Shown: positions 12,081 to 44,218 of the stretch, piece by piece
Numbering within the stretch: position 1 is the stretch's first letter
How the letters are laid out: the number at the start of each line of letters is the position of its first letter
Origin: an uncultured bacterium
GTDB lineage: Bacteria > Patescibacteriota > Dojkabacteria > J137
Assembly (NCBI GenBank): GCA_963700155.1
Contig: OY969472.1
Span: 176,271-240,270 of the forward strand
DNA length: 64,000 nt
Reading direction: 5' to 3'
The notes under the pieces: model-generated
Told to the model about the DNA's origin: nothing
The model's input: the letters and a program-made list of their open reading frames with translations, nothing else
Database searches by the model: none
Translations under genes and position numbers: made by a program

Positions 12081-15000
12081 TTAATTTATTATTAAGTAGT
12101 CTATTTTAACATCAGTTTCTTGAGCTTTTTCAATTTCTATTGTAAAGCCTTGTCCAGGAATAATAGATTTTACTATTGGAAGTACAAATTGATTACTCGT
12201 TAGTTGTATATGAGAATCTTCTGTAACAGAAGTATTGTCAACTGTGATTTCAGTCTCTCCAGAAGCAATATTTGCTTGTCCAATGCTAGAGTTTGGTCCG
12301 GATTTAAGTGTTAATTTACCATTAGTATCTACACCTAAAAGTGTGTTACCACCAGCATCTAATAATTTAAATGCATTTTCATTTGAAACGATTTGCATTG
12401 TTAAATCAAATCCGGAAATATTTGTATATGATTTTGCTTCAATTGAATTATTTACAGAAAGTACTTTGTCTAATGATAATTTAGCATCAGAAATCTTTAG
12501 TAATTGTTCAAGTGGTGTAGACCCAGATTCAGAGTTAGGATTTAAATCATTATTTACTGCTAAACCATTACCAAGATAATTTAAATTTACAAACATTGTT
12601 ACTTCTCCGATACCTTGATCATCAAAATTAGTTAATGCCATTCCAATTGCTAAACCTGAGCCTTTTGATTTCATAGCTACCCCAGGTGTTGAAGAAGGGG
12701 CTAAATAATCTCCAGCTTCAATTGGTCCGTTTTCTGTTGTAACTTTAACCGGGACTCTCCCTGACAAAGCTACTGGAACTATTGAACCATTACCTAAAGT
12801 TTTACCATCATCAAGAACCATTCCAGGTCTTGTTGAAACTACTCCTAATACTTTTGCATCATCAGTTCCCTGACTTTTTCTAACCCCAAGTTCTAGTGTT
12901 GGATCTATTGAAACTACCTCACCTAAATTCAAATTATCAGTTGTAGGATAAATTTCTGCCAAGTCAGCACCTGAGGCTGCAATTTCCTGAATTGTTAACA
13001 TAACCTCATCTATTGTTGCATTATTTCCAAAAGAACCATTGGTATCCCTGGTTGAAGCACAAACAGTGTATGTTTGAGGTGAAGTCGAAGCTGGTGAATC
13101 AATTACCGTGAATGGTATCCAAATCTGCTGTATTGGATCAGTCATTGCTGCAACAAAATCATTACCGATTTGTAATCCTGAACAGTTTCCACTTCCTCTT
13201 CTGACTCTAATTCTGACTGCAGTTTCAGTATCATCTCCTCCAGAAGGATTGGTATATTCAATAGCTCCAGTAATTAATATTCTTTGTGATGTATTGTCAG
13301 GACTAATTGTTGGATTTGTTGGAGTTAATACTTCAATTTCTGTCCCCCATGTTGGACTAGTTCCCGGTGTTGGTGAGGTAATACTTGAATCATCTACAGA
13401 TTCTGTTGACGAATTTGCTGCAGGATTTGAATTAGCTCCACCACTAGTTCCGATAACAAGTGCCTCTAGTCCCCAGTCATAAATATTAGTGTCACCTGCT
13501 GCTACAGAAGCACAAAGTGAGTAACTCTGCGCAGAATTTCCTGGATTTGATGCAACACCATAAATATGAAGATTACCTACAGGAGTTGTGTTACTATTAT
13601 TTGTTGATATTGTATATGTAACTGTAGCATTTCCTACTGTTGTACCTGAACAGTTATTAGTTGTTTCAATTGTTAAAGTAAATGGCTGGTCAGTATTATT
13701 ACCACTATGTAAATCTGCAAAACCTGAGACATAAACATCATCTGTAGTAGAACCTGGAGTTACAGAAACAGTACCTAATGTTGTTTGTGAAGAACTTGAA
13801 ATGTTTATAAAGCTATCACTTGTCTTGTATGCTGCATCGTGCTGTAGATTTATTCCTGTTCCTCCGATACAATTTGTCCAAGCCCCATTTTCATAACATC
13901 TAAATTTGTTAGTATTTGAATTATAGTAAATTGCACCGTTGGTGCCGGTGGGGTCGCCAGAGGTATTTTTGACATCAACTTTCAATAAATCCGGAGTTGC
14001 TGAACCAGAACCACCGGCACCAATCTGTACTGATCCAGTAGTCCCGGTTCCTGCTACCTGTAAATTAATATTTCCTGTTCCAGATTGAATTGTTGTTGTT
14101 GATGTTGATGTTGCTGAACCAAGCACTAATGTTTTTGCTGCAGCACCAGTTCCTACATTTATTGTTTCAGCACTTGCATCTCCACCAATTGTAATCGAGC
14201 CTGTAGTCCCAGACTCTATTGTTAAAGCTCTTGCAGCAGCAGTTGTAATATCTGTTCCAATTGTCCCGTTAAATTGTATCCCATTTGTAACTGTTCCTGC
14301 AGTTCTAGTAATGTTTAAAGCATTCGTAAGAGTTCCACCGGTAGTTTGATTAATCAACAAAGCATTAGTCAATGTTGTAGTACTTGTTAAGACTTCCGAA
14401 GTCCCAGCAATTGTTGTAAATGCTCCAGTAGATGGTGTTGTAGTACCTATTGCTGTTCCGTTTATTCCGGTTGAGGTAGTATTAATATTCGATGATGTTA
14501 ATGTTAACAAGTTTGCTCCAGTTGATATACTTGAAGCTGATAAACCTGAAAGTGCTAATGCTCCTGATGTTGATGTTAGATTGATAGCACCTGTTGTAAC
14601 TGTAAGACCAGTTGCAAATGTTGGATTTGAAACTGTCGCAAGTGTTATTGTTCCAGACCCGTTATTTGTTGTTGTTATATTTGTACCTTGTGCTAGTAAT
14701 AATGTTCCACCTTGGGATATCGTGCTATTTGTTCCGCTAGATGCTGAAGCAGTAAATATGCTGCCTCCAGATGTTAAACAAGTTGCACAAGTTAATGTTA
14801 ATCCAGCACCACCTAATGTTGCTGAACCCCCTCCTCCTAATGGTCCAGTAGTCCCTATAGTTACACTTGAATTTGCAAGTTGTGAATTTGTTATTCCTGC
14901 TGTTGCAGAAAGATTTGTTGTTGTTAGTCCTGAAATTGCAACATTAGCAGCAGCTGTTAACCTTCCTTGAGCATCAACTGTGTAAGTTGGGATATTTGTT

Positions 15001-18000
15001 GCACTTCCATAACTTCCTGCGGATACTGCAGTATTAGCTAAGTTTATAGTTGCTGATCCTCCTAACGCTAATGGTGAACCCCCTGTTATACTTATACCTG
15101 TTCCATTATTTAGAGTTACACTTGAATTTGCAAGATTAGCATTTGTTATTCCTGCACTTCCTGACAGATTGGAATTAGTTAATCCTGTTATTGTATTTGA
15201 ACCAGCTGCAATAGTTTTATTTGTTAGTACATCAATCGATGTAGGAGTAATATACCCTGCATCATTTGTCCATTGAGAAATATTTGCTGAAGTGAAGTTT
15301 GATGTTGTTAATCCTGAAATAGCAACACTTGCAGCGGCAGTTAACCTACCTTGAGCATCAACTGTAAATGTACCAATTGTTGAACCACTTCCATATGATC
15401 CTGGGGTAACAGTAGTATTTGCAATATTAATCGTTACAGTACCACTTCCATTATTAACTGTTGTGATTCCTGTACCTTGTGCTAAGGTAAGCGTTCCCCC
15501 ATCTGAAATTGTAGAATCAGAACCAGAACCTGCTGTAAGAGTAAACGATCCACCTCCGCTGGAACCTATGCAATCAACCCAGGAACTATTTTCAAAACAT
15601 CTAAATTTATCATTTGTAGTATTATAATAAATTCCACCGTTTGCCCCTGTAGGATCATTTGTCCCATTATCCAATACTAGTAAATCAGGAGTGTCTGTCC
15701 CACTATTCCCAATTAGAACCTGGCCGCTAGAACCAGTACTTCCAATTGTAAAATTTGCATTACCTGTACCTGATTTGATATTTAATGCTGTTGTAGTTGT
15801 ATTATTGCCTATTGTTATAGTTTTTGCATTTGTACTTGTTCCCAAATTTACCGCCCCTGTTGTACCTGAATCTAAAGTTAAGGCAGTTGCATTACCTGAT
15901 TTAACCGTTAAAGCTCCTCCTCCTGTGACAATTGCTCCTGCAGCTCCTAAATTAATCGCTGTAGCTGCTCCACCAACATTTAGTGTAGTAACATTTGTAT
16001 TGAATAAGTTTGCATTAGTAGCAGTTGTTGTTAAATCACCACCATTAACTCCAATATCACCTGCTGTAATAATGTTAAAGGCTCCAGTCTGATTCCAATC
16101 TTCAGTTAAATCTCCAAGGGAGACTGTATTTCCACTATTATTAAGTCCACTTGCAAAAGTAAAACTTGCGTTAGCTGAAAGTTGTACCCATCCACCAATA
16201 TGTGTTGAATATGTATATGAGATATCATGGTAAGCACTATTAGTATTTCCTACATAAAGTGCATCATTGTTGTTTGGAGATTCTGTTGTATATGTAAAAC
16301 TTCCTGGAGAACCACCAGAGATATGAATTTGATAATCTTTAAGTCCGGAAAGTGAACCTGCAGGAGTTGTACTTGAATTAAATGCAACTCCAAAACTATC
16401 ACCAACTGTTAGTGACTTTATTAAGACCCAAGTTGGATCTTGATATTGAACAAGATCACCAGGTGCAAATCCTGACCATACTCCTGTATTTCCACCAGTA
16501 TTAATCAAATAAGTATCATTATTTACTGGTGATCCAGGAGGAGTGCTTGCATCCTCTATTACATTTATTTCTTCTAACGGGTTATGCCATACAAGACCTG
16601 TAGCAATGTTATCAACATAAGTTTTTACAGCATTTTGAGTAGGATATAAAACGTCTGATGTTCCTAATGTTGTTGATGTCGATTTATTAGCAACATTTTC
16701 AGGGGTAAAGCCTAAAGCATCTTGCTTTCCATTAAACGTATTCCAGTCAGTTGATGTTAAAAATCCTGTTAAGGTAGAACTGGCAGCTTGGTCACCATCA
16801 TAATTCAGTGAAATAGCACCACTAGAATCAATAGTAGCATCTCCACTCAGAACCCTAGTAACCCAAGATGTACCGCTTCCAATTAATAAATTACCAGCAG
16901 TTGGAGTTGTTAAACCTAAAGTATTCCCATTAATCTTAGCTACAGTTGTAGCACCTTGTGTTCCTGTAACATCTCCGGCTAATGAACCTGTAAAATTTGT
17001 TGCAGATGTAGCTGTCGAAGCATTCCCTGAGACATCTATTGAATAGGTACCTGTGTTTATAACAGTGGAATAATTTCCAGCAGTAAGATTTGTTGCTGTT
17101 AAATTTGTTATTGTATTAAGTGATGCATTAATAGTTTTATTAGTTAATTCTTGTGTTGAACTTGCAGTGACATAACTAGAATCATTTGTCCATTGTGAAA
17201 TATTTGAAGATCCAAAATTGCTTACTGTTAAACCAGATATCCCAACATTACTTGCAGCAGTTAGTCTACCTTGAGCATCAACTGTATAAGTAGGAATAGT
17301 CGCTCCACCACCATAACTTCCAGCTGTCACAGTTGTATTTGCTAGGTTAATTGTTATTGTGCCTGATCCGCCGTTTACAGTTGTAATACCTGTGCCTTGT
17401 GATAATGTTAATGATCCCCCCTGTGATATGGTACTGTTGCTTCCACTACTAGCTACCGCAGTAAATAGGCTTCCTCCACTAGTTATACATGTAGTACAAG
17501 TTAATGTTAATGCAGAACCTCCAAGAGAAACTGACCCACCTCCTCCGAGTGGTCCAGAAGTATTTACAGTTACACTCGAATTTGCTAATTGAGAATTTGT
17601 TATTCCAGCTGTACCTGAAAGGTTTGTTGTTGTTAAACCTGCAATTGCTGTATTACTTGCAGAAGTTAACCTACCTTGCGCATCCACGGTAAATGAAGGC
17701 ACAGTAGTTCCACTACCATAACTCCCCGCAGTAACTAAAGTATCAGATAGATTAACCGTTGCTATACCTCCAAGAGCTAATGAACTACCTCCAGTAACAC
17801 TAATTCCTAAACCACTGTTTAATGTCACATAAGGAGTTGCTAAATTAGCATTTGTTATTCCCGCACTTCCAGATAAACTCGTATTAGTTAATCCCCCAAT
17901 TGCTACATTACTGGCTGAAGTCAACCTTCCATAAGTATCAACAGTAAATACTGGTACAGAATTCGAAGTCCCATAAGTAGCTGCAGTAATTCCTGATGGA

Positions 18001-18659
18001 CTTAACGCTGAACAAGATGGACAATCAATTGTTAATGAACCACCCAAACTAACTGAACCACCACCGGTTATTGGTCCTGATGTTTTTATATTTAAACTAG
18101 AATTCGCCAATTGTGAATTGGCTAACCCGAAAATACTATTTTGATCAAAATTTGAACCATTACCATTTGCTCCAACTATAGCAATGTCTCCAATATTAGT
18201 TCCGGGTACTCTTCCTTGAAGATACTCAGCATTTAAATTATTAATCAGACCAGTATCAGGGATTATAAGATATGAACTAGAAATAAGCTTAAGTGGTACT
18301 GTTGGGCTAAGTGTACTTGTTGGAGTTTCAGACTGTTGGCCACTATTATTACTTCCAAACCCACCTGTTCCTCCTGTACCCCCAGTCCCTCCATTATTAT
18401 TTGAAGAGCTTCCAGATGGATTAATCTGTAATACCTGGTTTGTATCTAATATAGTAACTTTTGTAACTTGATTGTAAGCATCTGGATTTACTGGTTTAAG
18501 CAAATCTAAAGATACTCTTCCAACAGGTTGAAATATACTTTGCAAAAAAGATGGCTGCTGCTCTTCAACACCATTTGTAACACCACCATTAGTATAGCCA
18601 AGTAAGTCAGAAGTTTGAGTCTGGGAAGAAATTAAACAATAAAAATAATAACAGTACAA
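12081..18659 (-). CDS. Giant (>=2192 aa) Gly/Thr/Ser/Asn-rich repeat protein, adhesin- or fibre-like. The start is probably wrong and it is likely fused to 18607..18978 by a +1 frame change.
   Basis: At least five copies of an approximately 100-aa module (..SGSAGITNANLANSSVTLN.G.GISITGG..LALGG.ATINLANT.V.AGSYGS...IPTYTVDAQGRLTAA.NVAISGLTT.N). Two copies of a G.IYYN..N.KFRC(F/Y)EN..W..CIG motif resembling phage tail-fibre-type repeats. A non-repetitive C-terminal domain. The track start is a TTG, and no Met occurs in the first roughly 700 residues. No signal peptide. Confidence 0.75.
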   Translation of the reverse strand: MYCYYFYCLISSQTQTSDLLGYTNGGVTNGVEEQQPSFLQSIFQPVGRVSLDLLKPVNPDAYNQVTKVTILDTNQVLQINPSGSSSNNNGGTGGTGGTGGFGSNNSGQQSETPTSTLSPTVPLKLISSSYLIIPDTGLINNLNAEYLQGRVPGTNIGDIAIVGANGNGSNFDQNSIFGLANSQLANSSLNIKTSGPITGGGSVSLGGSLTIDCPSCSALSPSGITAATYGTSNSVPVFTVDTYGRLTSASNVAIGGLTNTSLSGSAGITNANLATPYVTLNSGLGISVTGGSSLALGGIATVNLSDTLVTAGSYGSGTTVPSFTVDAQGRLTSASNTAIAGLTTTNLSGTAGITNSQLANSSVTVNTSGPLGGGGSVSLGGSALTLTCTTCITSGGSLFTAVASSGSNSTISQGGSLTLSQGTGITTVNGGSGTITINLANTTVTAGSYGGGATIPTYTVDAQGRLTAASNVGISGLTVSNFGSSNISQWTNDSSYVTASSTQELTNKTINASLNTITNLTATNLTAGNYSTVINTGTYSIDVSGNASTATSATNFTGSLAGDVTGTQGATTVAKINGNTLGLTTPTAGNLLIGSGTSWVTRVLSGDATIDSSGAISLNYDGDQAASSTLTGFLTSTDWNTFNGKQDALGFTPENVANKSTSTTLGTSDVLYPTQNAVKTYVDNIATGLVWHNPLEEINVIEDASTPPGSPVNNDTYLINTGGNTGVWSGFAPGDLVQYQDPTWVLIKSLTVGDSFGVAFNSSTTPAGSLSGLKDYQIHISGGSPGSFTYTTESPNNNDALYVGNTNSAYHDISYTYSTHIGGWVQLSANASFTFASGLNNSGNTVSLGDLTEDWNQTGAFNIITAGDIGVNGGDLTTTATNANLFNTNVTTLNVGGAATAINLGAAGAIVTGGGALTVKSGNATALTLDSGTTGAVNLGTSTNAKTITIGNNTTTTALNIKSGTGNANFTIGSTGSSGQVLIGNSGTDTPDLLVLDNGTNDPTGANGGIYYNTTNDKFRCFENSSWVDCIGSSGGGSFTLTAGSGSDSTISDGGTLTLAQGTGITTVNNGSGTVTINIANTTVTPGSYGSGSTIGTFTVDAQGRLTAAASVAISGLTTSNFTSANISQWTNDAGYITPTSIDVLTNKTIAAGSNTITGLTNSNLSGSAGITNANLANSSVTLNNGTGISITGGSPLALGGSATINLANTAVSAGSYGSATNIPTYTVDAQGRLTAAANVAISGLTTTNLSATAGITNSQLANSSVTIGTTGPLGGGGSATLGGAGLTLTCATCLTSGGSIFTASASSGTNSTISQGGTLLLAQGTNITTTNNGSGTITLATVSNPTFATGLTVTTGAINLTSTSGALALSGLSASSISTGANLLTLTSSNINTTSTGINGTAIGTTTPSTGAFTTIAGTSEVLTSTTTLTNALLINQTTGGTLTNALNITRTAGTVTNGIQFNGTIGTDITTAAARALTIESGTTGSITIGGDASAETINVGTGAAAKTLVLGSATSTSTTTIQSGTGNINLQVAGTGTTGSVQIGAGGSGSATPDLLKVDVKNTSGDPTGTNGAIYYNSNTNKFRCYENGAWTNCIGGTGINLQHDAAYKTSDSFINISSSSQTTLGTVSVTPGSTTDDVYVSGFADLHSGNNTDQPFTLTIETTNNCSGTTVGNATVTYTISTNNSNTTPVGNLHIYGVASNPGNSAQSYSLCASVAAGDTNIYDWGLEALVIGTSGGANSNPAANSSTESVDDSSITSPTPGTSPTWGTEIEVLTPTNPTISPDNTSQRILITGAIEYTNPSGGDDTETAVRIRVRRGSGNCSGLQIGNDFVAAMTDPIQQIWIPFTVIDSPASTSPQTYTVCASTRDTNGSFGNNATIDEVMLTIQEIAASGADLAEIYPTTDNLNLGEVVSIDPTLELGVRKSQGTDDAKVLGVVSTRPGMVLDDGKTLGNGSIVPVALSGRVPVKVTTENGPIEAGDYLAPSSTPGVAMKSKGSGLAIGMALTNFDDQGIGEVTMFVNLNYLGNGLAVNNDLNPNSESGSTPLEQLLKISDAKLSLDKVLSVNNSIEAKSYTNISGFDLTMQIVSNENAFKLLDAGGNTLLGVDTNGKLTLKSGPNSSIGQANIASGETEITVDNTSVTEDSHIQLTSNQFVLPIVKSIIPGQGFTIEIEKAQETDVKIDYLIIN

Positions 18660-24810: not shown

Positions 24811-25010
24811 TCAATTTGAATTATATTTATTCATGCTCGTGAACTCTCTATCGAGAATGCAGAAATTTGCTGGTATCCGGACTTTCAAAAATGATTACCG
24901 TTGCGGCACAGTGAAGGATTTTCACCTTCTTCCCCAGCGCCTATCATCTAAGTTTAGACTTCGGCTTCTGTGATATAAACAATAGTTTAAATTTTAAAAA
25001 TATTCAAGAA

Positions 25011-31082: not shown

Positions 31083-31679
31083 TCAACCTTCAGCATCTTT
31101 ATAGGAATATCTTAAAGTAAAACTTTGCAATTCATTGTTATATTGATCATAACTTTTAAGGTAAAGTTTTCCATTTTTATTAAAATCAAGCCAAAATCCA
31201 TCAACTCTAAAATTACTTGTTGATTGAGATGGTGTCCACCTTGAAATACTCCAATCATCCACAGGTAAATACTGCATCCATATACCGGAAATTCTATCAG
31301 AAAATCCACCAGCTCCATACATTCCCCATTCACTTGTCTGATTGTTATCGTAATCCAATCCAGCCATATTAACTATTGCTATTGAGCGATCTCTTTTAGT
31401 TATCATATATATTTCACTAAGTAATGATATCCTATCAAAATCAGGTTGTTCAGATAAATACATATTAGAAAACAAATCCGGTAGAGGTAATTGGGCTTCT
31501 AATAATTTTGCATCAAGGTAATTTTTCTGCCAAGAAATATCACTATGCATTTCTGGAGATACGGTTGGCACTTGTCTAGAAATTGGAGTAATAGTTGGAG
31601 CCTGTGTTGCTTGAGGATTTCCACCACAAGCTGAAAGGGCTAACAAGCCTGCTGCTACTTCAAGGCGAGAGAACTTCAT
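31083..31679 (-). CDS. Putative lipoprotein
   Basis: Signal peptide with lipobox LLALSAC|GGN. The rest is a hydrophilic, Trp/Tyr-rich domain. Confidence 0.6.
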   Translation of the reverse strand: MKFSRLEVAAGLLALSACGGNPQATQAPTITPISRQVPTVSPEMHSDISWQKNYLDAKLLEAQLPLPDLFSNMYLSEQPDFDRISLLSEIYMITKRDRSIAIVNMAGLDYDNNQTSEWGMYGAGGFSDRISGIWMQYLPVDDWSISRWTPSQSTSNFRVDGFWLDFNKNGKLYLKSYDQYNNELQSFTLRYSYKDAEG

Positions 31680-31759
31680 TAATATGAACTTAATATATCA
31701 AATATAATTGAATAATAGCATATAAAAAAGGAATCTTTAAAATGAAGTTCTCTCGCCTT
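31662..31759. repeat. Perfect 19-bp inverted repeat (AAGGCGAGAGAACTTCATT / AATGAAGTTCTCTCGCCTT) flanking a 60-bp AT-rich spacer
   Basis: Left arm at 31662-31680 is the first 6 codons of the lipoprotein gene. Right arm at 31741-31759 overlaps the 3' end of the HAD gene. Confidence 0.8.
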
Positions 31760-32335
31760 TTAAATTTGGAGAAAATCTATTCCACACTTATCTGCAGCAA
31801 CTCCATCATTTAATCTGCTGTCACCTATCATTAAATATTTTGATTTATCTTCATCTTCACGATAAAGATCTTTAAAGCCAACTGGATCTGGTTTTAAATA
31901 TTTAACACTATCTCTTGTTACAAGTTTTGAAAAAGCACTTCTTATATTTTGTTCACCTAAAATTTTGTCTACCGTAGTCAAAGTGTTTGAAGTCCAAAGG
32001 TAAAAAGTATATTTATCTTTATTCTTTCTAATAAAATCTATTATTTCTTTATTTGGAGTATACCCTTTAAGATTTTTTCTCTCGAAATCAATCCATAACT
32101 TTGCAATAATTACCCACGATGGCGGTCCAAACCTTTTTACAATCATATTAGCAACAACTGAGATATCATTAACCATTTTAACTTTTGAAGTGAAGCTTTT
32201 ATCTACATTCTTTTCGAAATATTTTAATTGTTCTGTTAACTTAGACCAAGGAAGTATTAAAGTTGCAATTGTATGATCAAAATCAAAGATTAAGAATTCT
32301 TTTGGATGATCTTCGAGGTATTTTTCAAGTTCCAT
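31760..32335 (-). CDS. HAD-superfamily hydrolase
   Basis: Motif I FDFDHTIA (DxDxT) near the N-terminus. Size is typical of small HAD phosphatases. Confidence 0.6.
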   Translation of the reverse strand: MELEKYLEDHPKEFLIFDFDHTIATLILPWSKLTEQLKYFEKNVDKSFTSKVKMVNDISVVANMIVKRFGPPSWVIIAKLWIDFERKNLKGYTPNKEIIDFIRKNKDKYTFYLWTSNTLTTVDKILGEQNIRSAFSKLVTRDSVKYLKPDPVGFKDLYREDEDKSKYLMIGDSRLNDGVAADKCGIDFLQI

Positions 32336-32428
32336 AAATAAATTATATCAGAAGTTTTATGAAAGTCTTGTGATTTCTATAATCTTTTTTATAAAAGGAA
32401 CATAGAGTATAATTCTACTGAAATTCAA

Positions 32429-32446
32429 GCAGACGTGGCGGAATTG
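32429..32446 (+). repeat. 18-nt duplicate of the 5' end of tRNA-Leu(GAG) (GCAGACGTGGCGGAATTG), 124 nt upstream of the intact gene
   Basis: Exact match to tRNA positions 1-18. The sequence diverges after that. Confidence 0.8.
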
Positions 32447-32552
32447 ATCATAAGGTCAATTGAGACAAATGTAATGTAGTCGAAATAAAGACCGCATGAA
32501 TCCCCTGAGGGGAGCATACTTGAGTAGCAGAAGTTTGGTAATATTGTTTTAT

Positions 32553-32636
32553 GCAGACGTGGCGGAATTGGCATACGCGCTACCTTGAGGTGGTAGTCCA
32601 AGCAATTGGGTGCAGGTTCAAGTCCTGTCGTCTGCA
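32553..32636 (+). tRNA. tRNA-Leu (anticodon GAG), type II, 84 nt
   Basis: GCAGACGTGGCGGAATTGGCATACGCGCTACCTTGAGGTGGTAGTCCAAGCAATTGGGTGCAGGTTCAAGTCCTGTCGTCTGCA. Anticodon loop TTGAGGT, long variable arm, T-loop GGTTCAAGTCC. Confidence 0.85.
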
Positions 32637-33545: not shown

Positions 33546-33626
33546 ATTCAAGAGATTCTATAATAGTAGCGAATTCTTGGAGTTCTTCTATGATTTGGGT
33601 TCGCTTTCGATCCTCTAAGTTGCATT
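33546..33626 (+). repeat. Segment repeat copy 1, short subtype (...GATTCTATAATAGTAGCGAATTCTTGGAGTTCTTCTATGATTTGGGTTCGCTTTCGATCCTCTAAGTTGCATT)
   Basis: Near-identical to copies at 36231 and 39204 and to the 3' half of copies 2 and 3. Confidence 0.85.
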
Positions 33627-33978: not shown

Positions 33979-34010
33979 GTGTTTAAATTTTACTCTTCAA
34001 AATTAATATA

Positions 34011-34108
34011 TTCCATAATGGTACTGAAAACTTTGAATTCTTCTAATATTACTCGAACTGAGCTACTACTCAGTTCACCGGTTCGCTTTCGATCCTCTAA
34101 GTTGCATT
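34011..34108 (+). repeat. Segment repeat copy 2, long subtype with a 27-nt insertion carrying the GAACTGAGCTACTACTCAGTTC hairpin
   Basis: Shares ...TTCTTCTAATATTACTCGAACTGAGCTACTACTCAGTTCACCGGTTCGCTTTCGATCCTCTAAGTTGCATT with copy 3. Confidence 0.85.
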
Positions 34109-34129
34109 ATTTTATTATAAACTCCTGAT

Positions 34130-34753: not shown

Positions 34754-34830
34754 ATATTAGTATTAAAATATAATTGTACGGAATATATAATTTTAATATA
34801 GAAAAAGCAAGTTGAATTTAAATAGCCTCA

Positions 34831-34939
34831 CATTCAATGGATTCTATAATAGTACTAAATTCTTGGAGTTCTTCTAATATTATTCGAACTGAGCTACTAC
34901 TCAATTCACCGGTTCTCTTTCGATCCTCTAAGTTGCATT
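34831..34939 (+). repeat. Segment repeat copy 3, long subtype
   Basis: CAATGGATTCTATAATAGTACTAAATTCTTGGAGTTCTTCTAATATTATTCGAACTGAGCTACTACTCAATTCACCGGTTCTCTTTCGATCCTCTAAGTTGCATTGA. Confidence 0.85.
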
Positions 34940-34946
34940 GACTTAT

Positions 34947-35591
34947 TCAATAAGGATTTTTCTTCTTGTCTTTTATATATTTTTCGTAATACTTCTTAGA
35001 GTCAAGAGCTTCTGGTCCAGTTCCATTCTCGAAATATTCTAAGAGTTGATCTTCAATATAATCATTCTCATCTGAATAAGAGACATTCCAATCATCTATT
35101 GTAATCAAAATACCTAACAAAACCTTATCTTTGAAGTTATAATCATAATACGTTGCTTTAGGGAACTTATGCATAATCTCAAACACAACCTCATGTAAAA
35201 AATTTTCAGAGATCTCATCATCAAAATAAAGCTTTAATACTTTTTTTATTAAAATTTTTACATCATCTTCAGTTGGTTTAGTTTTAGGAAAATTCTCATT
35301 TCGTATATATTCTCCAACTGTTGATTCGAGTTTATCTTCATCATTAGAGGCTAGTGTTTGATAAAAATCTAAAATCCTACCTCTTACCTCGATAAATTCT
35401 GTTGTTGGCTGTCTTACACTCCAATTCAAAGCTAATTCCACCAATGCTCTCAAGTTAGAATCAGATTTATCAATTTTTTGACAGAGAGATCTAGCATTTT
35501 CTGCGAGCTGCTTTCGAGATATTTGACCATCGAAATAACGCTTTATTGCATTTTCGAAAATTTTTCGAGTATTTGAATCATTAATTTTCAT
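34947..35591 (-). CDS. Hypothetical protein
   Basis: ORF only. Helical and Lys/Glu/Asp-rich. Confidence 0.45.
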   Translation of the reverse strand: MKINDSNTRKIFENAIKRYFDGQISRKQLAENARSLCQKIDKSDSNLRALVELALNWSVRQPTTEFIEVRGRILDFYQTLASNDEDKLESTVGEYIRNENFPKTKPTEDDVKILIKKVLKLYFDDEISENFLHEVVFEIMHKFPKATYYDYNFKDKVLLGILITIDDWNVSYSDENDYIEDQLLEYFENGTGPEALDSKKYYEKYIKDKKKNPY

Positions 35592-35786
35592 AGTTTACTA
35601 ATTATAATAATTAAAATTTTATATAGATTTTACCCCTTAAAAATATTTAAACCAACTTTGTCTTTTGGTAAAGCTCGTCACTGCTGACGAGAGAATTGTA
35701 GTCTGTTTCCAGATCTACACTTCTACAAAGTTGGTTTAACTTTTAGCTTCAGATCTACAAATCAACGATTTTGATACTGTTATGGA

Positions 35787-36035
35787 TCAGCCACCGAACC
35801 AGGAGCCGAAGCCACCTTTTTTTTCCTTCTTGCCCTTGCGGTCTTTGACAACACCCGTCTCGATGGTCAGTTTGCGCCCGTTGTCGTGATCGGTCTGGTG
35901 ATCCCCTGTCTTCGATCCATCAGGGTGGCGATCATGAGACCGGTGTAAACCGGGCTGGTGTTTTACCGTGTGAACATACGGTTTTCCATTCTTATCTTTC
36001 TTGTTCTCATTTTTCGTTGTATGTTTCCTAACCAC
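35787..36035 (-). CDS. GC-rich small His/Lys/Gly/Asp-rich hydrophilic protein (disordered, possibly stress- or metal-related)
   Basis: GTG start 5 nt after a strong AGGAGGTG SD. No hydrophobic core. About 50% GC against roughly 30% flanks. The 5'UTR has a GTGTCCGAAAAGGAACAC hairpin. Confidence 0.45.
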   Translation of the reverse strand: MVRKHTTKNENKKDKNGKPYVHTVKHQPGLHRSHDRHPDGSKTGDHQTDHDNGRKLTIETGVVKDRKGKKEKKGGFGSWFGG

Positions 36036-36230
36036 TTTACACCTCCTAAGGGTGTTCCTTTTCGGACACTTAATGTGTCATGAGTAATAATATTATCACT
36101 CAATCTATATATAATGTCAATATACTAGAGACGTTTGTAGAGCTCATCTACTAATATTTATCTAAAACTTTGATGAAATAAATCTTTATCTGCGGTAACT
36201 TCAACTGTTCGGATAGCTTCCGCATTGTCT

Positions 36231-36316
36231 TCAAACTCAATGGATTCTATAATAGTGCTGAACACTTGGAGCTCTTCGATGATTTGGGTTCGCTTTCGAT
36301 CCTCTAAGTTGCATTT
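36231..36316 (+). repeat. Segment repeat copy 4, short subtype
   Basis: CAATGGATTCTATAATAGTGCTGAACACTTGGAGCTCTTCGATGATTTGGGTTCGCTTTCGATCCTCTAAGTTGCATT. Confidence 0.85.
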
Positions 36317-36367: not shown

Positions 36368-36976
36368 ATGAATAATATTGATTTACCCAATGCACTTCCA
36401 CAAGACATCATCGCAAAAGAAAAGCTTATAGAATTAGTTAGAGAAAAGTTAATACCAAAACTTGATTTATATAGAGATAGATTTTCTGACTTTCCAGAAC
36501 TACAGAAAAAGGTTTCAGACGAAACTATTGAAATCATGGTAGAAAGTTTTGCTGAATGTTTCTTACTACTTAATTTAACGCAGGAACATATTCCTGATTT
36601 TTTTGTATTTGATGAGAAGTTTAGAGAAGAAATAAGTATGATAACAAATACCGTATGGATTCTAAATAGTGAAGATGGACCTGTTTTTAATATAAACTAT
36701 GATCGTCTTTATGAAATATCACAAAGAATTTCAGAAAAAAATTCAAAATTAAATTTAATGGAAAAAGATCATTTACGACAAATGATTGCCCATGAAGTAC
36801 ACCATATTTATGATATATATTTTGATCCTGAAAGAGCAAAAATTTCAGGAATAGCAAATGCAAGAAGTGACTTAGCTTTCTTAGACCCAGGAGAAAATGC
36901 TGCTCAACAATTTGGTTTTAGATATCGTGATCTAAAAAAAGATGAAGATGACTTAAAAGTTAATAATAAAAACTGA
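36368..36976 (+). CDS. Hypothetical protein with an HExxH motif (possible zincin-like metallopeptidase)
   Basis: MIAHEVHHIYD contains HEVHH. No other support. Confidence 0.4.
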   Translation: MNNIDLPNALPQDIIAKEKLIELVREKLIPKLDLYRDRFSDFPELQKKVSDETIEIMVESFAECFLLLNLTQEHIPDFFVFDEKFREEISMITNTVWILNSEDGPVFNINYDRLYEISQRISEKNSKLNLMEKDHLRQMIAHEVHHIYDIYFDPERAKISGIANARSDLAFLDPGENAAQQFGFRYRDLKKDEDDLKVNNKN

Positions 36977-39682: not shown

Positions 39683-39714
39683 TTCATGAATTTATCAAGT
39701 TGTGTTGGTTGTTA

Positions 39715-39756
39715 GGCGCGGCGTTAAATGCCGCGCCATCTCAACCTTGCTAATTA
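39715..39756. repeat. Cassette-1 3' element: GGCGCGGCG-TTAAA-TGCCGCGCC hairpin plus terminal IR AACCTTGCTAATTA
   Basis: Nearly identical elements at 40943-40980 and 41751-41782. The 14-bp IR partner TAATTAGCAAGGTT is at 40798-40811. Confidence 0.85.
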
Positions 39757-40635
39757 TCAATTAGTCCGACGCCTGATCATCTCCAGTACTTGTTGGGCTT
39801 GATATGTAGAACAGGATGGGGTAAGCCCCCATACATGAGTATTGTCGTCTGTCAGGTATATAGGTTCACGGGTAAGCCAGGCGTTCGAATATAAGCCATT
39901 TCGCACTACAATCATCCACTCTCCTTCTGTTGGAAGAAGTTGTTTCGACATTAGCCCATCGGTGTCAAAGAGTGGAGTCCAGTATCCGCCTGGACCATTC
40001 TTAATCTGACCTGCGACTTCACCATTGATCTTATAAATGACTTCTCCGAAGTCGCAGAACGGGACATCCTCACCAGGGCTTGGTGCCACATAGTCGGACG
40101 TCTTGTCGAAATCCACCCACACTGACGCTTCAGAGCCATCAATTCCGACCCGGACAGCGTTACCCTCGCAGGATTGCACTGTGGTGTCGTAACCAATGAC
40201 CGAGATCCCCGCTTCAAGCTGAAGCTGGGAGTCAAGATAAATCTCGACGCTCGGCGGAACGCGAATCGGATTATCGATAGCGCAATGCCTTACTGTCTCC
40301 TGCACTCCGCCAAGTTGATCAGTGTAGCTGGAGGTTTCATCGAAATCCGCCAAGTCTACCCACACACCAGCATCCACACTAGCTACTGATCTATCGTGGA
40401 AAATGACAAGAGCTGCATTTCCCTGGCATGCTCTAACTTCACCATCGAAGCCAGCGATCAAGGATCCAGCACTAACTTGAAGCTGAGAGTCAAGGTAAAG
40501 TGCAGTACCTGCTGGAACATGAATCGAGGGGAGTCCTGTGACACAGTAACGCTGATGAACATCCTGCCCAAGAGCAGGCTGAATCAGTCCGATAGTGAGC
40601 AATACGCCCACGAATATTACCACTAATTTCTTCAT
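39757..40635 (-). CDS. Secreted protein, paralogue 1 of a three-member family (two internal about 70-aa repeats plus a shared C-terminal domain). GC-rich.
   Basis: Signal peptide MKKLVVIFVGVLLTIGLIQPALGQ. Internal duplication YCVTGLPSIHVPAGTALYLDSQLQ... and HCAIDNPIRVPPSVEIYLDSQLQ.... C-terminus GEWMIVVRNG...HVWGLTPSC...VLEMI is shared with paralogues 2 and 3. Confidence 0.7.
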   Translation of the reverse strand: MKKLVVIFVGVLLTIGLIQPALGQDVHQRYCVTGLPSIHVPAGTALYLDSQLQVSAGSLIAGFDGEVRACQGNAALVIFHDRSVASVDAGVWVDLADFDETSSYTDQLGGVQETVRHCAIDNPIRVPPSVEIYLDSQLQLEAGISVIGYDTTVQSCEGNAVRVGIDGSEASVWVDFDKTSDYVAPSPGEDVPFCDFGEVIYKINGEVAGQIKNGPGGYWTPLFDTDGLMSKQLLPTEGEWMIVVRNGLYSNAWLTREPIYLTDDNTHVWGLTPSCSTYQAQQVLEMIRRRTN

Positions 40636-40724
40636 TTCCGGTCTCCAGTATATTATGATTTTGCAGCTACGCTTATAAAGGACGCTACTTACCCTCAGTC
40701 TTTAAAGTTCGAGCTCGTTCAGCT

Positions 40725-40782
40725 TTAAAGATGCGCAAACTAACCTCATTTTATTTTTAAAGTCAGTTTGCGCATCTTAAAG
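40725..40782. promoter_or_regulatory. Large palindromic operator-like element upstream of paralogue 1 (TTTAAAGATGCGCAAACTAAC ... GTCAGTTTGCGCATCTTAAAG)
   Basis: A roughly 21-bp inverted repeat around a 16-nt AT spacer. It is related to the elements upstream of paralogues 2 and 3. Confidence 0.55.
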
Positions 40783-40942
40783 TACAAACTCAAGCAATAA
40801 TTAGCAAGGTTGTTAATGAACTGTAAAACTAACAAATGATTAGAATTTACAAGGGGATTATATCATGGTGATATACTTATGTCACATTAAAGTATCATAG
40901 GTACTTATTTAGGAAGGAATTAAGGAAGTTAGATTAGGTTCA

Positions 40943-40980
40943 GGCGCGGCGTTAAACGCCGCGCCTTCTCAACCTTGCTA
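40943..40980. repeat. Cassette-2 3' element: GGCGCGGCGTTAAACGCCGCGCC hairpin plus AACCTTGCTA
   Basis: A perfect 9-bp GC stem with a 5-nt loop. The IR partner AGCAAGGTT is at 41554-41562. Confidence 0.85.
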
Positions 40981-40981
40981 G

Positions 40982-41389
40982 CTATCCTAGGAAAATCCCG
41001 ATGAGATGAAGTAACCAAACGAGAAACTCGAGCTGCGGTTTTACGCACCCAATTGAATAGGTCCAAACCCTTGAGCCAGGTTTGACACTATCATATGGGG
41101 TTGCTGATACTTCGGCAGTGCTGAACAGTATTCGATCATTATGCAATCTTGCTACGATTAACCACTGCCCCGAAGGATTTACAAATATTGCTCCTCCGTT
41201 ATCAGTACTTAGCGAATCGAAGTACCATCCATTACTCATTGGTACCTGACGAAGCCCTTTTATTAGAATGCACTCAGTCACTCCAAGTGACATCCCCGAG
41301 CTGGAGCTATCGGCGAGAGCTGGGATAATTTGCAGTCCCAGCAATCCAATGAGCAATATGCTCACTAAGAATAATGGAATTCTATTCAT
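40982..41389 (-). CDS. Secreted protein, paralogue 2 (135 aa), GC-rich
   Basis: Signal peptide MNRIPLFLVSILLIGLLGLQIIPALA. GQWLIVARLHND...RVWTYSIGC...LEFLV aligns with the shared C-terminal domain. Confidence 0.65.
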   Translation of the reverse strand: MNRIPLFLVSILLIGLLGLQIIPALADSSSSGMSLGVTECILIKGLRQVPMSNGWYFDSLSTDNGGAIFVNPSGQWLIVARLHNDRILFSTAEVSATPYDSVKPGSRVWTYSIGCVKPQLEFLVWLLHLIGIFLG

Positions 41390-41476
41390 TCTACCTCCAT
41401 TACAAGCTACTGCAGCTTCGCTAACTCAAGGATGCTGCTACCCTTATCATCAAGTACTGAGCTCATTCGGACTCGA

Positions 41477-41524
41477 TGACGCGCAAAGTAACTTAAAATT
41501 TAATTATCGTCACTTTGCGCGTCA
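41477..41524. promoter_or_regulatory. Palindromic operator-like element upstream of paralogue 2 (TGACGCGCAAAGTAAC-N16-GTCACTTTGCGCGTCA)
   Basis: A 16-bp IR with one mismatch. Near-identical copy at 42479-42526. Confidence 0.6.
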
Positions 41525-41553
41525 CCAATCTTAAAATTTTCAAGGATATTATC

Positions 41554-41650
41554 AGCAAGGTTATCAGTAATCTTTCATAGCTTTCGCATATGATTTTGAT
41601 TACTAACAACATTAATCCCATAAGTGGGATTGCTGTTATTAATGTGCTTA
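41554..41650. repeat. Conserved about 100-nt AT-rich structured block (AGCAAGGTTATCAGTAATCTTTCATAGCTTTCGCATATGATTTTGATTACTAACAACATTAATCCCATAAGTGGGATTGCTG...)
   Basis: Repeated at 42555-42660 with a few substitutions. Contains AGTAATC/GATTACT and AATCCCA/TGGGATT hairpins. Confidence 0.8.
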
Positions 41651-41750
41651 TAATACTATTATACACTAAGAGATTATTTTATATAATATAAGAAGTATAT
41701 AAGGATTTTAAAGATATCTATATTTATTTGAAAGTTATCAGGCGCGGCGT

Positions 41751-41782
41751 TAAACGCCGCGCCTACATCGATAACCTTGCTA
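41751..41782. repeat. Cassette-3 3' element: GGCGCGGCGTTAAACGCCGCGCC hairpin plus AACCTTGCTA (overlaps the stop codon)
   Basis: As for cassettes 1 and 2. The IR partner CATAGT..TAGCAAGGTTAT is at 42543-42566. Confidence 0.85.
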
Positions 41783-42406
41783 ACTATGCATAATCTCCAA
41801 GATGTGATCAAGATCCCCCTGATCACACCCATTGTTCAGCGCCCAGACGTGGGCGCCGAAAATCGAGCTGACGAACGTGTAATTGACAAACCGAGCGGTC
41901 TGCCAGAGATCGTTGCCTTCAGGTCCTTTGTCCACTACTAAGAGCAGTTGCCCGTAATAGTGGAGATCAGTCGAGGGATGAACAAAGACGATTCCTCCTT
42001 GATTAGTCTCACGACCGGCATGATAATCTCCGTCACCGATGGCGTCGCCGCCAAAAACCTTCTGAATACGGCAGATCGGGCGAGTAACTTGCGGTCCATC
42101 AGGCATAATTGAGCCTTCAAAGATGGAATTCCTTATATCATCAACCGCAACCCATAACCGATGATCGGAGCCGTGAATACTGATCTCTGCTGAATCGATG
42201 TCATCTGCGCAAGTATTCACAACAGCACCAAATCCTTCCGTTGTCAGACCATATTGTTCGGTCCGACCCGCGTCATTGAATAGCCAGGTGCCTGGCTGGA
42301 CAATTACGTAGCCATTCGTACATGCCACATTTTCTTGCCCGATGGCTGGCGTAACCAGCATGGCTGAAAGGACAATGAACACAATGAACAGAACTAGCTT
42401 CTTCAT
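41780..42406 (-). CDS. Secreted protein, paralogue 3 (208 aa), GC-rich
   Basis: Signal peptide MKKLVLFIVFIVLSAMLVTPAIGQ. The C-terminus GQLLLVVDKG...HVWALNNGC...ILEIM aligns with paralogues 1 and 2. Confidence 0.7.
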   Translation of the reverse strand: MKKLVLFIVFIVLSAMLVTPAIGQENVACTNGYVIVQPGTWLFNDAGRTEQYGLTTEGFGAVVNTCADDIDSAEISIHGSDHRLWVAVDDIRNSIFEGSIMPDGPQVTRPICRIQKVFGGDAIGDGDYHAGRETNQGGIVFVHPSTDLHYYGQLLLVVDKGPEGNDLWQTARFVNYTFVSSIFGAHVWALNNGCDQGDLDHILEIMHS

Positions 42407-42478
42407 TTTCTTATCTCCGTTTTGAACTCTTTCTCTCGAAGTATGCTTATCATCTTCCCGAATGATTCCTGGGTTTAA

Positions 42479-42526
42479 TGACGCGCAAAGTAACTTAAAA
42501 TTTAATTATTGTCACTTTGCGCGTCA
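42479..42526. promoter_or_regulatory. Palindromic operator-like element upstream of paralogue 3
   Basis: TGACGCGCAAAGTAACTTAAAATTTAATTATTGTCACTTTGCGCGTCA. Confidence 0.6.
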
Positions 42527-42554
42527 CTAACTTTCAGTTCTAACATAGTTATAT

Positions 42555-42660
42555 TAGCAAGGTTATCAGTAATCCTTTCATAGCTTTCACATATGATTTT
42601 GATTACTAACAACATTAATCCCATAAAAGGAATTGCTGTTGTTAATGTTCTAAGTAAACT
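42555..42660. repeat. Second copy of the conserved about 100-nt block, beginning with TAGCAAGGTT
   Basis: See 41554-41650. Confidence 0.8.
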
Positions 42661-42774
42661 CATAAATGAATCTACTCGATTGAATTATATCATCGGTATA
42701 TATTTCTTATCAAACTTTTATTTATGAATAAGTTAACTTTAAAATTTCTTTTTCAAAAGCTATACTATTGATAT

Positions 42775-43786: not shown

Positions 43787-44218
43787 TTATTTCTTTGTTG
43801 TAGTTTTCTTAGTTGCAGTTTTTTTTGCAGCTGACTTTGTTACCTGTTTTTTTACTGTCGAAGTTTTTTTAATTATTGGTTTCGTATCAACTTTAGTTGA
43901 TGGCATTACATCTATTTCTGTAGGCTTAACTTCTCCACCTTGAACAACAGCTGAAGCACTCTCAACAACATCAACATATTTTTGATGTCTTTTATATCCT
44001 GTCATTCTTCTGAATGCAACGAAGCCTAGTTTTGTTGCATAAAGTGTGAAATCTCTTCCTTGTTTAACATTTACACCTGGATAAAATTCAGAACCTCTTT
44101 GTCTGACAATAATTTCTCCTGGATTAACTTTTTCTCCACCAAATTTTTTAATGCCTAGTCTTTTTCCTATGACATCAACTGTTCTTTTTGCTGAACCGGT
44201 GGCGGCTGAATGTGCCAT
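43787..44218 (-). CDS. rpmA: 50S ribosomal protein L27 with a Lys/Thr-rich C-terminal extension
   Basis: RLGIKKFGGEKVNPGEIIVRQRGSEFYPGVNVKQGRDFTLYA is the conserved L27 core. Confidence 0.9.
   Translation of the reverse strand: MAHSAATGSAKRTVDVIGKRLGIKKFGGEKVNPGEIIVRQRGSEFYPGVNVKQGRDFTLYATKLGFVAFRRMTGYKRHQKYVDVVESASAVVQGGEVKPTEIDVMPSTKVDTKPIIKKTSTVKKQVTKSAAKKTATKKTTTKK

Follow-up and report, generated by a model that had tools for sequence, protein, structure and literature searches.

A GC-rich mini-gene encoding an 82-amino-acid (aa) protein lies within a 64,000-nt stretch of DNA from an uncultured bacterium of the Dojkabacteria (contig OY969472.1 of assembly GCA_963700155.1, positions 176,271 to 240,270; this whole stretch is referred to below as the window). 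It is probably a native, long-resident small-protein gene housed in a conserved expression cassette, in which a stable mRNA would be translated through a Shine-Dalgarno (SD) site into a basic protein that has an acidic partner. The mini-gene belongs to a protein family under purifying selection, and its composition, its SD site, the RNA structures on either side of it and its synteny with the partner gene are conserved among relatives. Coordinates of all features of the locus are given in Table 1.

An earlier note on this DNA, made from the sequence alone, had described an 82-aa His/Lys/Gly/Asp-rich open reading frame (ORF) whose product lacks a hydrophobic core. The ORF is present, on the minus strand, and its product is very hydrophilic and basic (8 His, 20 Lys + Arg and 10 Asp + Glu residues; isoelectric point (pI) 10.1; grand average of hydropathy −1.72). 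AlphaFold2 (AF2), with nine input sequences, yields an all-β model with a predicted local distance difference test (pLDDT) score of 79.5, according to which the mini-protein would be a hydrophilic, solvent-exposed single-layer β-meander; the predicted single-layer sheet agrees with the absence of a hydrophobic core. The central sheet of OspA and the TCP/G-box domain of CPAP are also single-layer β-sheets, and their likeness to the model is one of generic topology only (8–16% identity, Foldseek E ≥ 0.75), which implies neither homology nor a common function. The mini-protein matched no family in Pfam or NCBIfam even at E ≤ 1 and none in PHROGs or PADLOC at E ≤ 0.1, and its best PDB profile match had an E value of 0.43. 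From its basic, His/Asp-rich surface and its acidic partner, binding to metal, nucleic acid, the ribosome or the partner can be guessed at.

The homology search that the earlier note had proposed for the peptide recovered a rare family. A word-indexed protein search returned the self-match only, phmmer found four homologues among 1.84 billion representatives, and a follow-up profile search in a collection of 5.8 billion proteins identified eight homologous clusters of 79–104 aa. One homologue originates from a metagenome-assembled genome (MAG) labelled Candidatus Dojkabacteria, which was also the only genome returned by a scan of GTDB species representatives; peptide patterns of the family found no further members in the JGI metagenome and IMG/VR collections. 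The family is new, uncharacterised and rare, and occurs in Dojkabacteria-like bacteria (candidate phyla radiation (CPR)/Patescibacteria) and a few other bacteria. A contig of 56% GC (L012, positions 483–1753) carries a tandem row of four small hydrophilic ORFs (84, 80, 84 and 82 aa) that ends with the distant member P0011. An M-[AP]-[PA]-N-H N-terminus is common to two of the four; the row may represent a cluster of related small proteins.

Besides the window, the mini-gene is found in four other low-GC contigs, one of them labelled Candidatus Dojkabacteria (L001/L002/L018, L003–L005, L006 and L017; background GC 30–36%), where the encoded proteins share 46–64% identity with the mini-protein. 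Across the family ten residues are invariant (H22, H26, R32, S33, D35, K42, D45, H46, G61 and V63), which make up the motif H-x3-H ... R-S-x-D ... K-x2-D-H ... G-x-V. Among the five low-GC members, the proportion of synonymous differences (pS) is 0.67–0.82, i.e., synonymous sites are saturated, and that of nonsynonymous differences (pN) is 0.23–0.45, with dN/dS ratios of 0.11–0.33 wherever computable. Because pS is saturated while pN is far lower, the mini-gene is an old, genuinely protein-coding gene under purifying selection.

The composition of the mini-gene (GC 0.502; GC at third codon positions (GC3) 0.568) departs strongly from that of the window, which has 31.8% GC. The 60 other genes of the window have a GC3 of 0.19 ± 0.04 with a maximum of 0.29, and 0.9% of 249-nt windows reach or exceed the GC content of the mini-gene. 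When the same protein is re-encoded with the codon usage of the window, a GC3 of 0.178 ± 0.041 is obtained, from which the real gene deviates by a z-score of 9.5; the highest value in 20,000 such simulations was 0.358. The codon choice is atypical for Arg, His and Thr. The statistical comparison thus bears out the claim that the GC content is out of character for this genome. The same composition recurs in all five low-GC contexts (GC 31.8% in the window, 31% in L001, 35.6% in L003, 31% in L006 and 34% in L017), in which the mini-gene has a GC of 48–53% and a GC3 of 49–65% and its neighbours a GC3 of 15–35%.

Two causes of the GC-rich codons were considered and rejected. Translational selection for C-ending codons is contradicted by the ribosomal protein genes bL21 and bL27, whose GC3 values (0.13 and 0.15) are the lowest in the window and for which reason high expression alone cannot explain the codons; the mini-gene also uses CGC, CGG, CAG, AAG and ACG. 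A specific mRNA fold is rejected for want of consistent excess folding of the coding sequence, with fold z-scores of 0.1 in the window, −3.3 in L001, −0.6 in L003, −2.0 in L006 and −0.4 in L017. Since GC3 stays 30–45 points above background despite saturated synonymous sites, the GC-rich codons appear to be kept by selection, and since both tested explanations fail, this constraint seems to act on composition itself rather than on a specific sequence or fold.

The fold scores also bear on the view that the GC-rich segment is mainly a structured non-coding RNA (ncRNA) in which the ORF is incidental or secondary, as in a dual-function RNA. In AT-rich genomes, structured ncRNAs are over-represented among long GC-rich intergenic regions (PMC6429828, PMC8632094). 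The ORF here has a genuine structured RNA next to it, and in L001 and L006 the coding sequence is somewhat better folded than its shuffled versions. This view is nevertheless very improbable. The protein is conserved despite saturated synonymous sites and has a confident AF2 model, the homologues in genomes of 49–56% GC have their own SD and ATG, the coding sequences of the window, L003 and L017 show no excess folding, and Rfam returned no matches.

From the GC content and the strong SD, the earlier note had suggested that the locus may be a small mobile insertion, which the inverted repeat would bound, or a horizontally acquired gene for a stress or metal-binding peptide. A recent foreign origin would be in keeping with a GC3 that lies 9.5 standard deviations above expectation, with the atypical Arg, His and Thr codons, with an SD unique in the window, with the position of the locus in a repeat-delimited array of ORFan genes beside a tRNA-Leu gene, and with the occurrence of more distant family members in genomes of 49–56% GC. 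It is now largely refuted and retains hardly any probability. Homologues of the same composition, whose presence in relatives the earlier note had itself named as contrary evidence, are present in low-GC relatives: composition and SD recur in all four other contigs, and the partner gene and the structures of the untranslated regions (UTRs) accompany them, the partner in three. Saturation of synonymous sites indicates ample time to drift toward the GC content of the host, yet no drift is seen, and because of this saturation the gene is regarded as an old resident. Instead of flanking the gene on both sides, the inverted repeat is confined to the region downstream of the coding sequence; it encloses three conserved hairpins and, when searched for elsewhere in the window, proved to occur only once. 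Pfam scans of the 26 ORFs between 28.3 and 50.4 kb detected no integrase, transposase or recombinase, and neither phage and plasmid collections nor IMG/VR gave any match. As to the further suggestion of an RNA paired with a protein, the gene does code for a protein, and a real structured RNA adjoins it. An ancient acquisition of the mini-gene by the low-GC lineage is possible, because the distant members in genomes of 49–56% GC occur without the partner. The locus is a clean counter-example to equating GC-rich sequence and odd codons with recent horizontal transfer.

The second distinguishing feature of the mini-gene is its SD. In the 60 other genes of the window a four-nucleotide SD core is found twice and a five-nucleotide core never, which leaves the mini-gene with the only strong SD among the genes counted; the earlier note had called the strong SD out of character for this genome. 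The window is essentially SD-free, as are L001, L003 and L006; in each of these contigs no gene but the mini-gene has a GGAGG-type SD, and a four-nucleotide core alone precedes two further called ORFs of L003. The GGAGG SD is kept in all five low-GC homologues, where the string GGAGGUGUAAA-GUG is conserved, and because of this conservation the annotated starts of P0008 and P0010 are judged to lie too far upstream.

The perfect SD and the 5′UTR hairpin seen ahead of the gene at first reading are both present, in the form of two small hairpins (H1 and H2), the second of which holds the SD AGGAGGUG, half in its loop and half in its 3′ arm. The 5′UTR of L017 is almost identical to that of the window, including a near-identical H1 (GACAC-AUUGG-GUGUC), and L006 and L001 have a 5′ hairpin of other sequence at the same relative place. 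The layout of H2 recurs in L017 (ACACCU/AGGUGU), in L006 (UACAC/GUGUA) and, with compensatory changes, in L001 (UUGUAC/GUACAA); in L003 it can be drawn by eye (ACAC/GUGU), from which the minimum free energy (MFE) fold differs. The single-sequence fold of the 5′UTR in the window is not significant (z −0.5). Further upstream, a match to the promoter consensus predicts a transcript start near 36085; L017 has TTGACA at the corresponding place and L003 has TTGATT-16-TATAAT. A different motif, TTGCGG(Y)ACAATG, is located ~95–100 nt upstream of GC-rich small ORFs in L001 and L006 (the mini-gene in both) and at positions 10–30 of L023, and is accompanied in L001 by a TTGTA...TACAA palindrome. It may be a promoter or an operator; it is absent from the window and L017, which have TTGACA instead.

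The inverted repeat downstream of the mini-gene is the closing stem (P1) of a conserved four-way-junction RNA. It had been described as a 14-bp repeat enclosing a hairpin; both are present, and the stem measures 15 bp. Of two GTAGATCTG direct repeats said to lie inside it, one does so (35710–35718), and the other (35750–35758) is outside, between the inverted repeat and the stop codon. The core of the junction has an MFE of −40.9 kcal/mol and a z-score of −7.5 over 105 nt (−5.0 over 199 nt), at a GC content of only 38% in the structured part. Independent folding of the five low-GC loci predicts a four-way junction in four of them (z −5.3 to −7.5). In L003 and L001 the MFE structure has this architecture despite quite different internal sequences, in L017 the architecture comes to within 0.9 kcal/mol of the minimum, and in L006 it is reduced to P1 and P2. 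The pairing of P3 is kept amid variation (CUCGUCA/UGACGAG, UAGUCA/UGACUA and UUUGUA/UACAAA). Compensatory double changes are found at 8 of the 19 pairs of P1 and P4, a number reached by none of 500 shuffles and set against 0–2 in slid controls; a covariance model built from four sequences (R1) did not fix the register of P2 and P3, so covariation was counted for P1 and P4 only. R1 scores far higher on the sense than on the antisense strand, with 97 and 36 bits, respectively, in the window and 71 and 31 bits in L017, and its search of the window and related loci returned its four source sequences and weaker reverse-strand matches only. A DNA-pattern scan of metagenomes for the P1 stem found just four unrelated loci (L019–L022). 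Rfam gave no gathering-level match for the region, the best permissive one being the aspC motif (25.5 bits against a gathering threshold of 100, E = 0.21). The four-way junction is a candidate new RNA motif.

Two roles can be envisaged for the junction. A TATAAT-like box stands between it and the start codon of the partner gene in four of the five loci, and in L017 a GATAAT-like box is found before the contig end. Because these −10-like boxes separate it from the partner gene, the evidence favours the junction as the 3′ end of the mini-gene transcript over a leader of the partner gene. The latter role would make the junction a cis-regulatory element (riboswitch-like, protein-binding, or a switch involving GUAGAUCUG) and the two genes a single regulated operon. 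In line with this, it is always situated between the two genes and on their strand, and a multi-stem junction with some conserved sequence (UGUAGA/UGUGGA) is more elaborate than a terminator requires. Alternative pairings are also possible: in the window the 3′ strand of P2 could exchange its normal partner for the upstream copy of GUAGAUCUG, and L003 has a near-copy of the 5′ strand of P1. A leader function is nonetheless unlikely, given that the −10-like boxes suggest a separate promoter, that sequence and loop of the internal helices are freely variable and the four sequences share no core resembling a ligand pocket, and that L006 retains P1 and P2 alone. The repeats behind the alternative pairings are not conserved either, and the significance of the upstream GUAGAUCUG copy is accordingly doubtful.

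The partner gene begins 195 nt beyond the mini-gene, with the large RNA structure between them. Homologues of the partner follow the mini-gene in L001, L003 and L006 (blastp E values of 1e-38 to 2e-5), the three other contigs long enough to show it, and form a family of acidic proteins of ~183–256 aa with host-like composition. The AF2 model of the partner comprises 11 helices (pLDDT 79.2), and searches of Pfam, PDB and Foldseek gave no matches. The mini-protein probably acts with this acidic α-helical partner. One form such a relationship could take is that of toxin and antidote, effector and immunity protein, or a chaperone pair, which would suit a location among ORFan cassettes, the opposite charges (pI 10.1 and 5.1), the conserved adjacency and the surrounding repeat-delimited array of unannotatable ORFs. 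This is rather improbable, since PADLOC, Pfam and PHROG searches recognised no toxin, antitoxin or immunity domain, the two genes are held apart by the 195-nt gap, the RNA structure and apparently separate promoters, family members outside the low-GC lineage have no partner, and a toxin would not normally be given the strongest expression signals of its region.

A long-resident gene in a conserved expression cassette accommodates these observations best if the elements are read in transcriptional order. The cassette would open with a strong sigma-70-type promoter-like site, a short 5′UTR with the 5′ hairpin and the SD hairpin, and a strong SD in an otherwise SD-less genome, and would continue with the GC-rich coding sequence, the ~93-nt four-way junction and the AT-rich partner gene, itself preceded by a −10-like box. 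A long-lived mRNA could result from the combination of 5′ hairpin, strong SD, GC-rich body and large 3′ structure, and its translation would depend on SD pairing, which the other, AU-rich and SD-less genes do not use. The four-way junction would form the 3′ end of the transcript, as a terminator or a stabiliser, and would insulate the partner gene. Stabilised mRNAs that combine strong 3′ structures with a 5′ stem-loop or an SD-like stabiliser are exemplified by STAB-SD of Bacillus thuringiensis cryIIIA and the 5′ hairpin of Escherichia coli ompA. The mini-gene resembles them in that its short ORF is flanked by a hairpin and a perfect SD close to the 5′ end on one side and by a large 3′ structure on the other; it differs in having a four-way junction instead of a simple hairpin as its 3′ element and an uncultured member of the CPR as its host.

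Several points weigh against the cassette as described. Its promoter and transcript ends, the stability of the mRNA and the SD dependence of translation are predictions throughout; there are five low-GC instances only, some on very short contigs, and the covariation derives from four sequences. The coding sequence is no better folded than shuffled controls in three of the five members, which leaves its GC-richness without a fold-based cause. That the junction acts as a classical intrinsic terminator is doubtful: UUUAAAUAUUUUU comes after P1 in the window, no clear U-tract is seen in L003, L006 and L017, and a terminator scan did not flag the site. A further homologue of the partner, in L023, is located near a different GC-rich, SD-led small ORF of 76 aa, which was rejected as a homologue of the mini-protein (hhalign probability 0.3%). 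Similarity rankings also differ between the two genes, L003 being the outlier for the mini-protein and L006 for the partner, and exchange of the mini-gene within the lineage is conceivable. Finally, since it resides in a repeat-delimited array beside tRNA-Leu, the module may have changed place within this genome as one unit.

Table 1. Features of the mini-gene locus, with positions numbered from the first nucleotide of the window.
Feature	Position	Strand	Description
Promoter-like site	36092..36120	minus	TTGACA-17 nt-GATAAT, 11/12 consensus matches
5′UTR hairpin H1	36065..36079	minus	GACAC-AUUAA-GUGUC
SD hairpin H2	36039..36055	minus	ACACC-CUUAGGA-GGUGU
SD AGGAGGTG	36040-36047	minus	4 nt (36036-36039) between last SD base and GTG
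Mini-gene	35787..36035	minus	82 aa, GTG start, His/Lys/Asp/Gly-rich, GC 50%, GC3 57%
Upstream copy of GUAGAUCUG	35750..35758	minus	in spacer between stop codon and structured element
Four-way-junction RNA	35647..35739	minus	~93 nt, P1-P4
P1	35725-35739 paired with 35647-35661	minus	15 bp, the inverted repeat
P2	35692-35724	minus	internal hairpin of junction
P3	35674-35691	minus	CTCGTCA-GCAG-TGACGAG
P4	35662-35673	minus	internal hairpin of junction
Partner gene	34947..35591	minus	214 aa, acidic (pI 5.1), predicted all-α, GC 30%, GC3 23%, no SD
Four-copy repeat, upstream-side copy	36233..36315		core CTTAGAGGATCGAAAG; bounds module upstream
Four-copy repeat, downstream-side copy	34828..34947		directly after partner stop codon

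A single strongly SD-led gene in an SD-blind lineage has a precedent in rpsU (bS21) of Flavobacterium johnsoniae and other Flavobacteriales, which in F. johnsoniae is autoregulated via access to the anti-SD (PMC7797042, PMC9976891, PMC13000453). The likeness consists in the near SD-free background and in one gene for a small, very basic protein with a conserved extended SD. By analogy, an arrangement of this type implies that the mini-gene would have a special translational route or an autoregulatory loop. In contrast to bS21, which is helical, the mini-protein is predicted to be all-β and has no sequence or fold likeness to it, nor any match to a ribosomal Pfam or NCBIfam family. The lineage is CPR rather than Bacteroidia, and the GC-rich codons and the 3′ four-way junction have no counterpart in rpsU. 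Sequestration of the anti-SD belongs to the rpsU system and is here predicted by analogy only; an Rfam scan located no 16S rRNA gene in the 64-kb window. Like the ncRNA motifs of GC-rich intergenic regions (PMC6429828, PMC8632094, PMC11109978), the locus is a GC-rich island in an AT-rich genome with a multi-stem, covarying RNA absent from Rfam; unlike them, it is mostly protein-coding, its structured part has 38% GC, and it has four to five representatives. The findings add a small-protein family and a candidate junction RNA motif to the sparsely known regulatory repertoire of the Patescibacteria, and the combination of genomes almost free of SDs with a few genes that have a perfect SD points to a testable translation route in the CPR.

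Other GC-rich ORFs with SDs were found in the window and in related loci. Three tandem units occupy 39700–42700 on the minus strand (ORFs 39757–40635, 40982–41389 and 41780–42406). Each unit comprises AT-rich flanks conserved at 85–96% identity, inverted repeats (TGACGCGCAAAGT...ACTTTGCGCGTCA), one SD-led ORF (GC 44–50%, GC3 43–51%) whose product has a signal peptide, and a hairpin of GC-rich sequence (AGGCGCGGCGTTTAACGCCGCGCCT). The three products are divergent paralogues with 21–31% identity and no Pfam matches. Small GC-rich ORFs with strong SDs (AAGGAGGAG and GGGAGGTG) and 49–58% GC also occur at ~9140–9390 of L003 (on the plus strand of the locus) and at 113–343 of L023. One encodes a predicted small membrane protein and the other a 76-aa hydrophilic protein near the partner homologue, and neither is detectably related to the mini-protein. 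Apart from the mini-gene, the window has no SD-led genes but the tandem-unit ORFs, which suggests a gene class that combines GC-richness with an SD; its candidate members are the mini-gene, the three secreted paralogues at 39.7–42.4 kb and the small ORFs in L003 and L023. Extending the rpsU analogy, such a class might be translated separately and be read only by ribosomes with an accessible anti-SD, with the mini-protein as a lineage-specific ribosome-associated factor controlling this switch and the junction as a new 3′-end motif; this is a speculative extension with a slim chance of being correct.

In the window, the whole module (34948–36232) lies between two copies of a four-copy repeat, within the array of ORFan units beside tRNA-Leu; its flanks differ between relatives. 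The copies (33548–33625, 33997–34116, 34828–34947 and 36233–36315) are ~80–115 nt long, with their core on the minus strand, and two of them carry a 27-nt hairpin insert. They separate ORFan genes of 236, 97, 207, 214 + 82 and 202 aa, and one reading frame (CNLEDRKRT...IIEELQEF...) is open in all of them. The repeat is absent from all related loci and is context rather than part of the conserved module. A recombination scar and a gene fragment are candidates for its nature; an attC-like integron site was rejected, as no integrase is present and the ends, by eye, are unlike GTTRRRY/RYYYAAC cores.

Some further observations concern the surroundings of the array. A 23-nt copy of the 5′-end of tRNA-Leu(GAG) is found at 32424–32446, 124 nt upstream of the intact gene, and matches 32548–32570 in 21 of 23 positions; an old integration or rearrangement at the border of the ORFan array may have left this fragment behind. 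The 202-aa ORFan (36368–36976, plus strand) contains an HExxH motif (HEVHH) and has a weak, below-threshold match to DUF5700, a putative zinc peptidase (E = 0.0014). Between the ORFs 31083–31679 and 31760–32335, a 19-bp inverted repeat (31662–31759) encloses a 60-nt interior that folds weakly.

Elsewhere in the window, the bL27 gene (43787–44218, minus strand) is long and encodes 143 aa, in keeping with reports of an enlarged bL27 in some CPR bacteria (PMC9297842). Together with the labelled homologues, the GC of 31.8% and a contig of 1.14 Mb, this long bL27 points to a Dojkabacteria-like member of the CPR. A cobalamin riboswitch (43 bits) is located at 24851–24999 on the minus strand, and a 2192-aa ORF at 12081–18659, also on the minus strand, combines high GC at second codon positions with low GC3.

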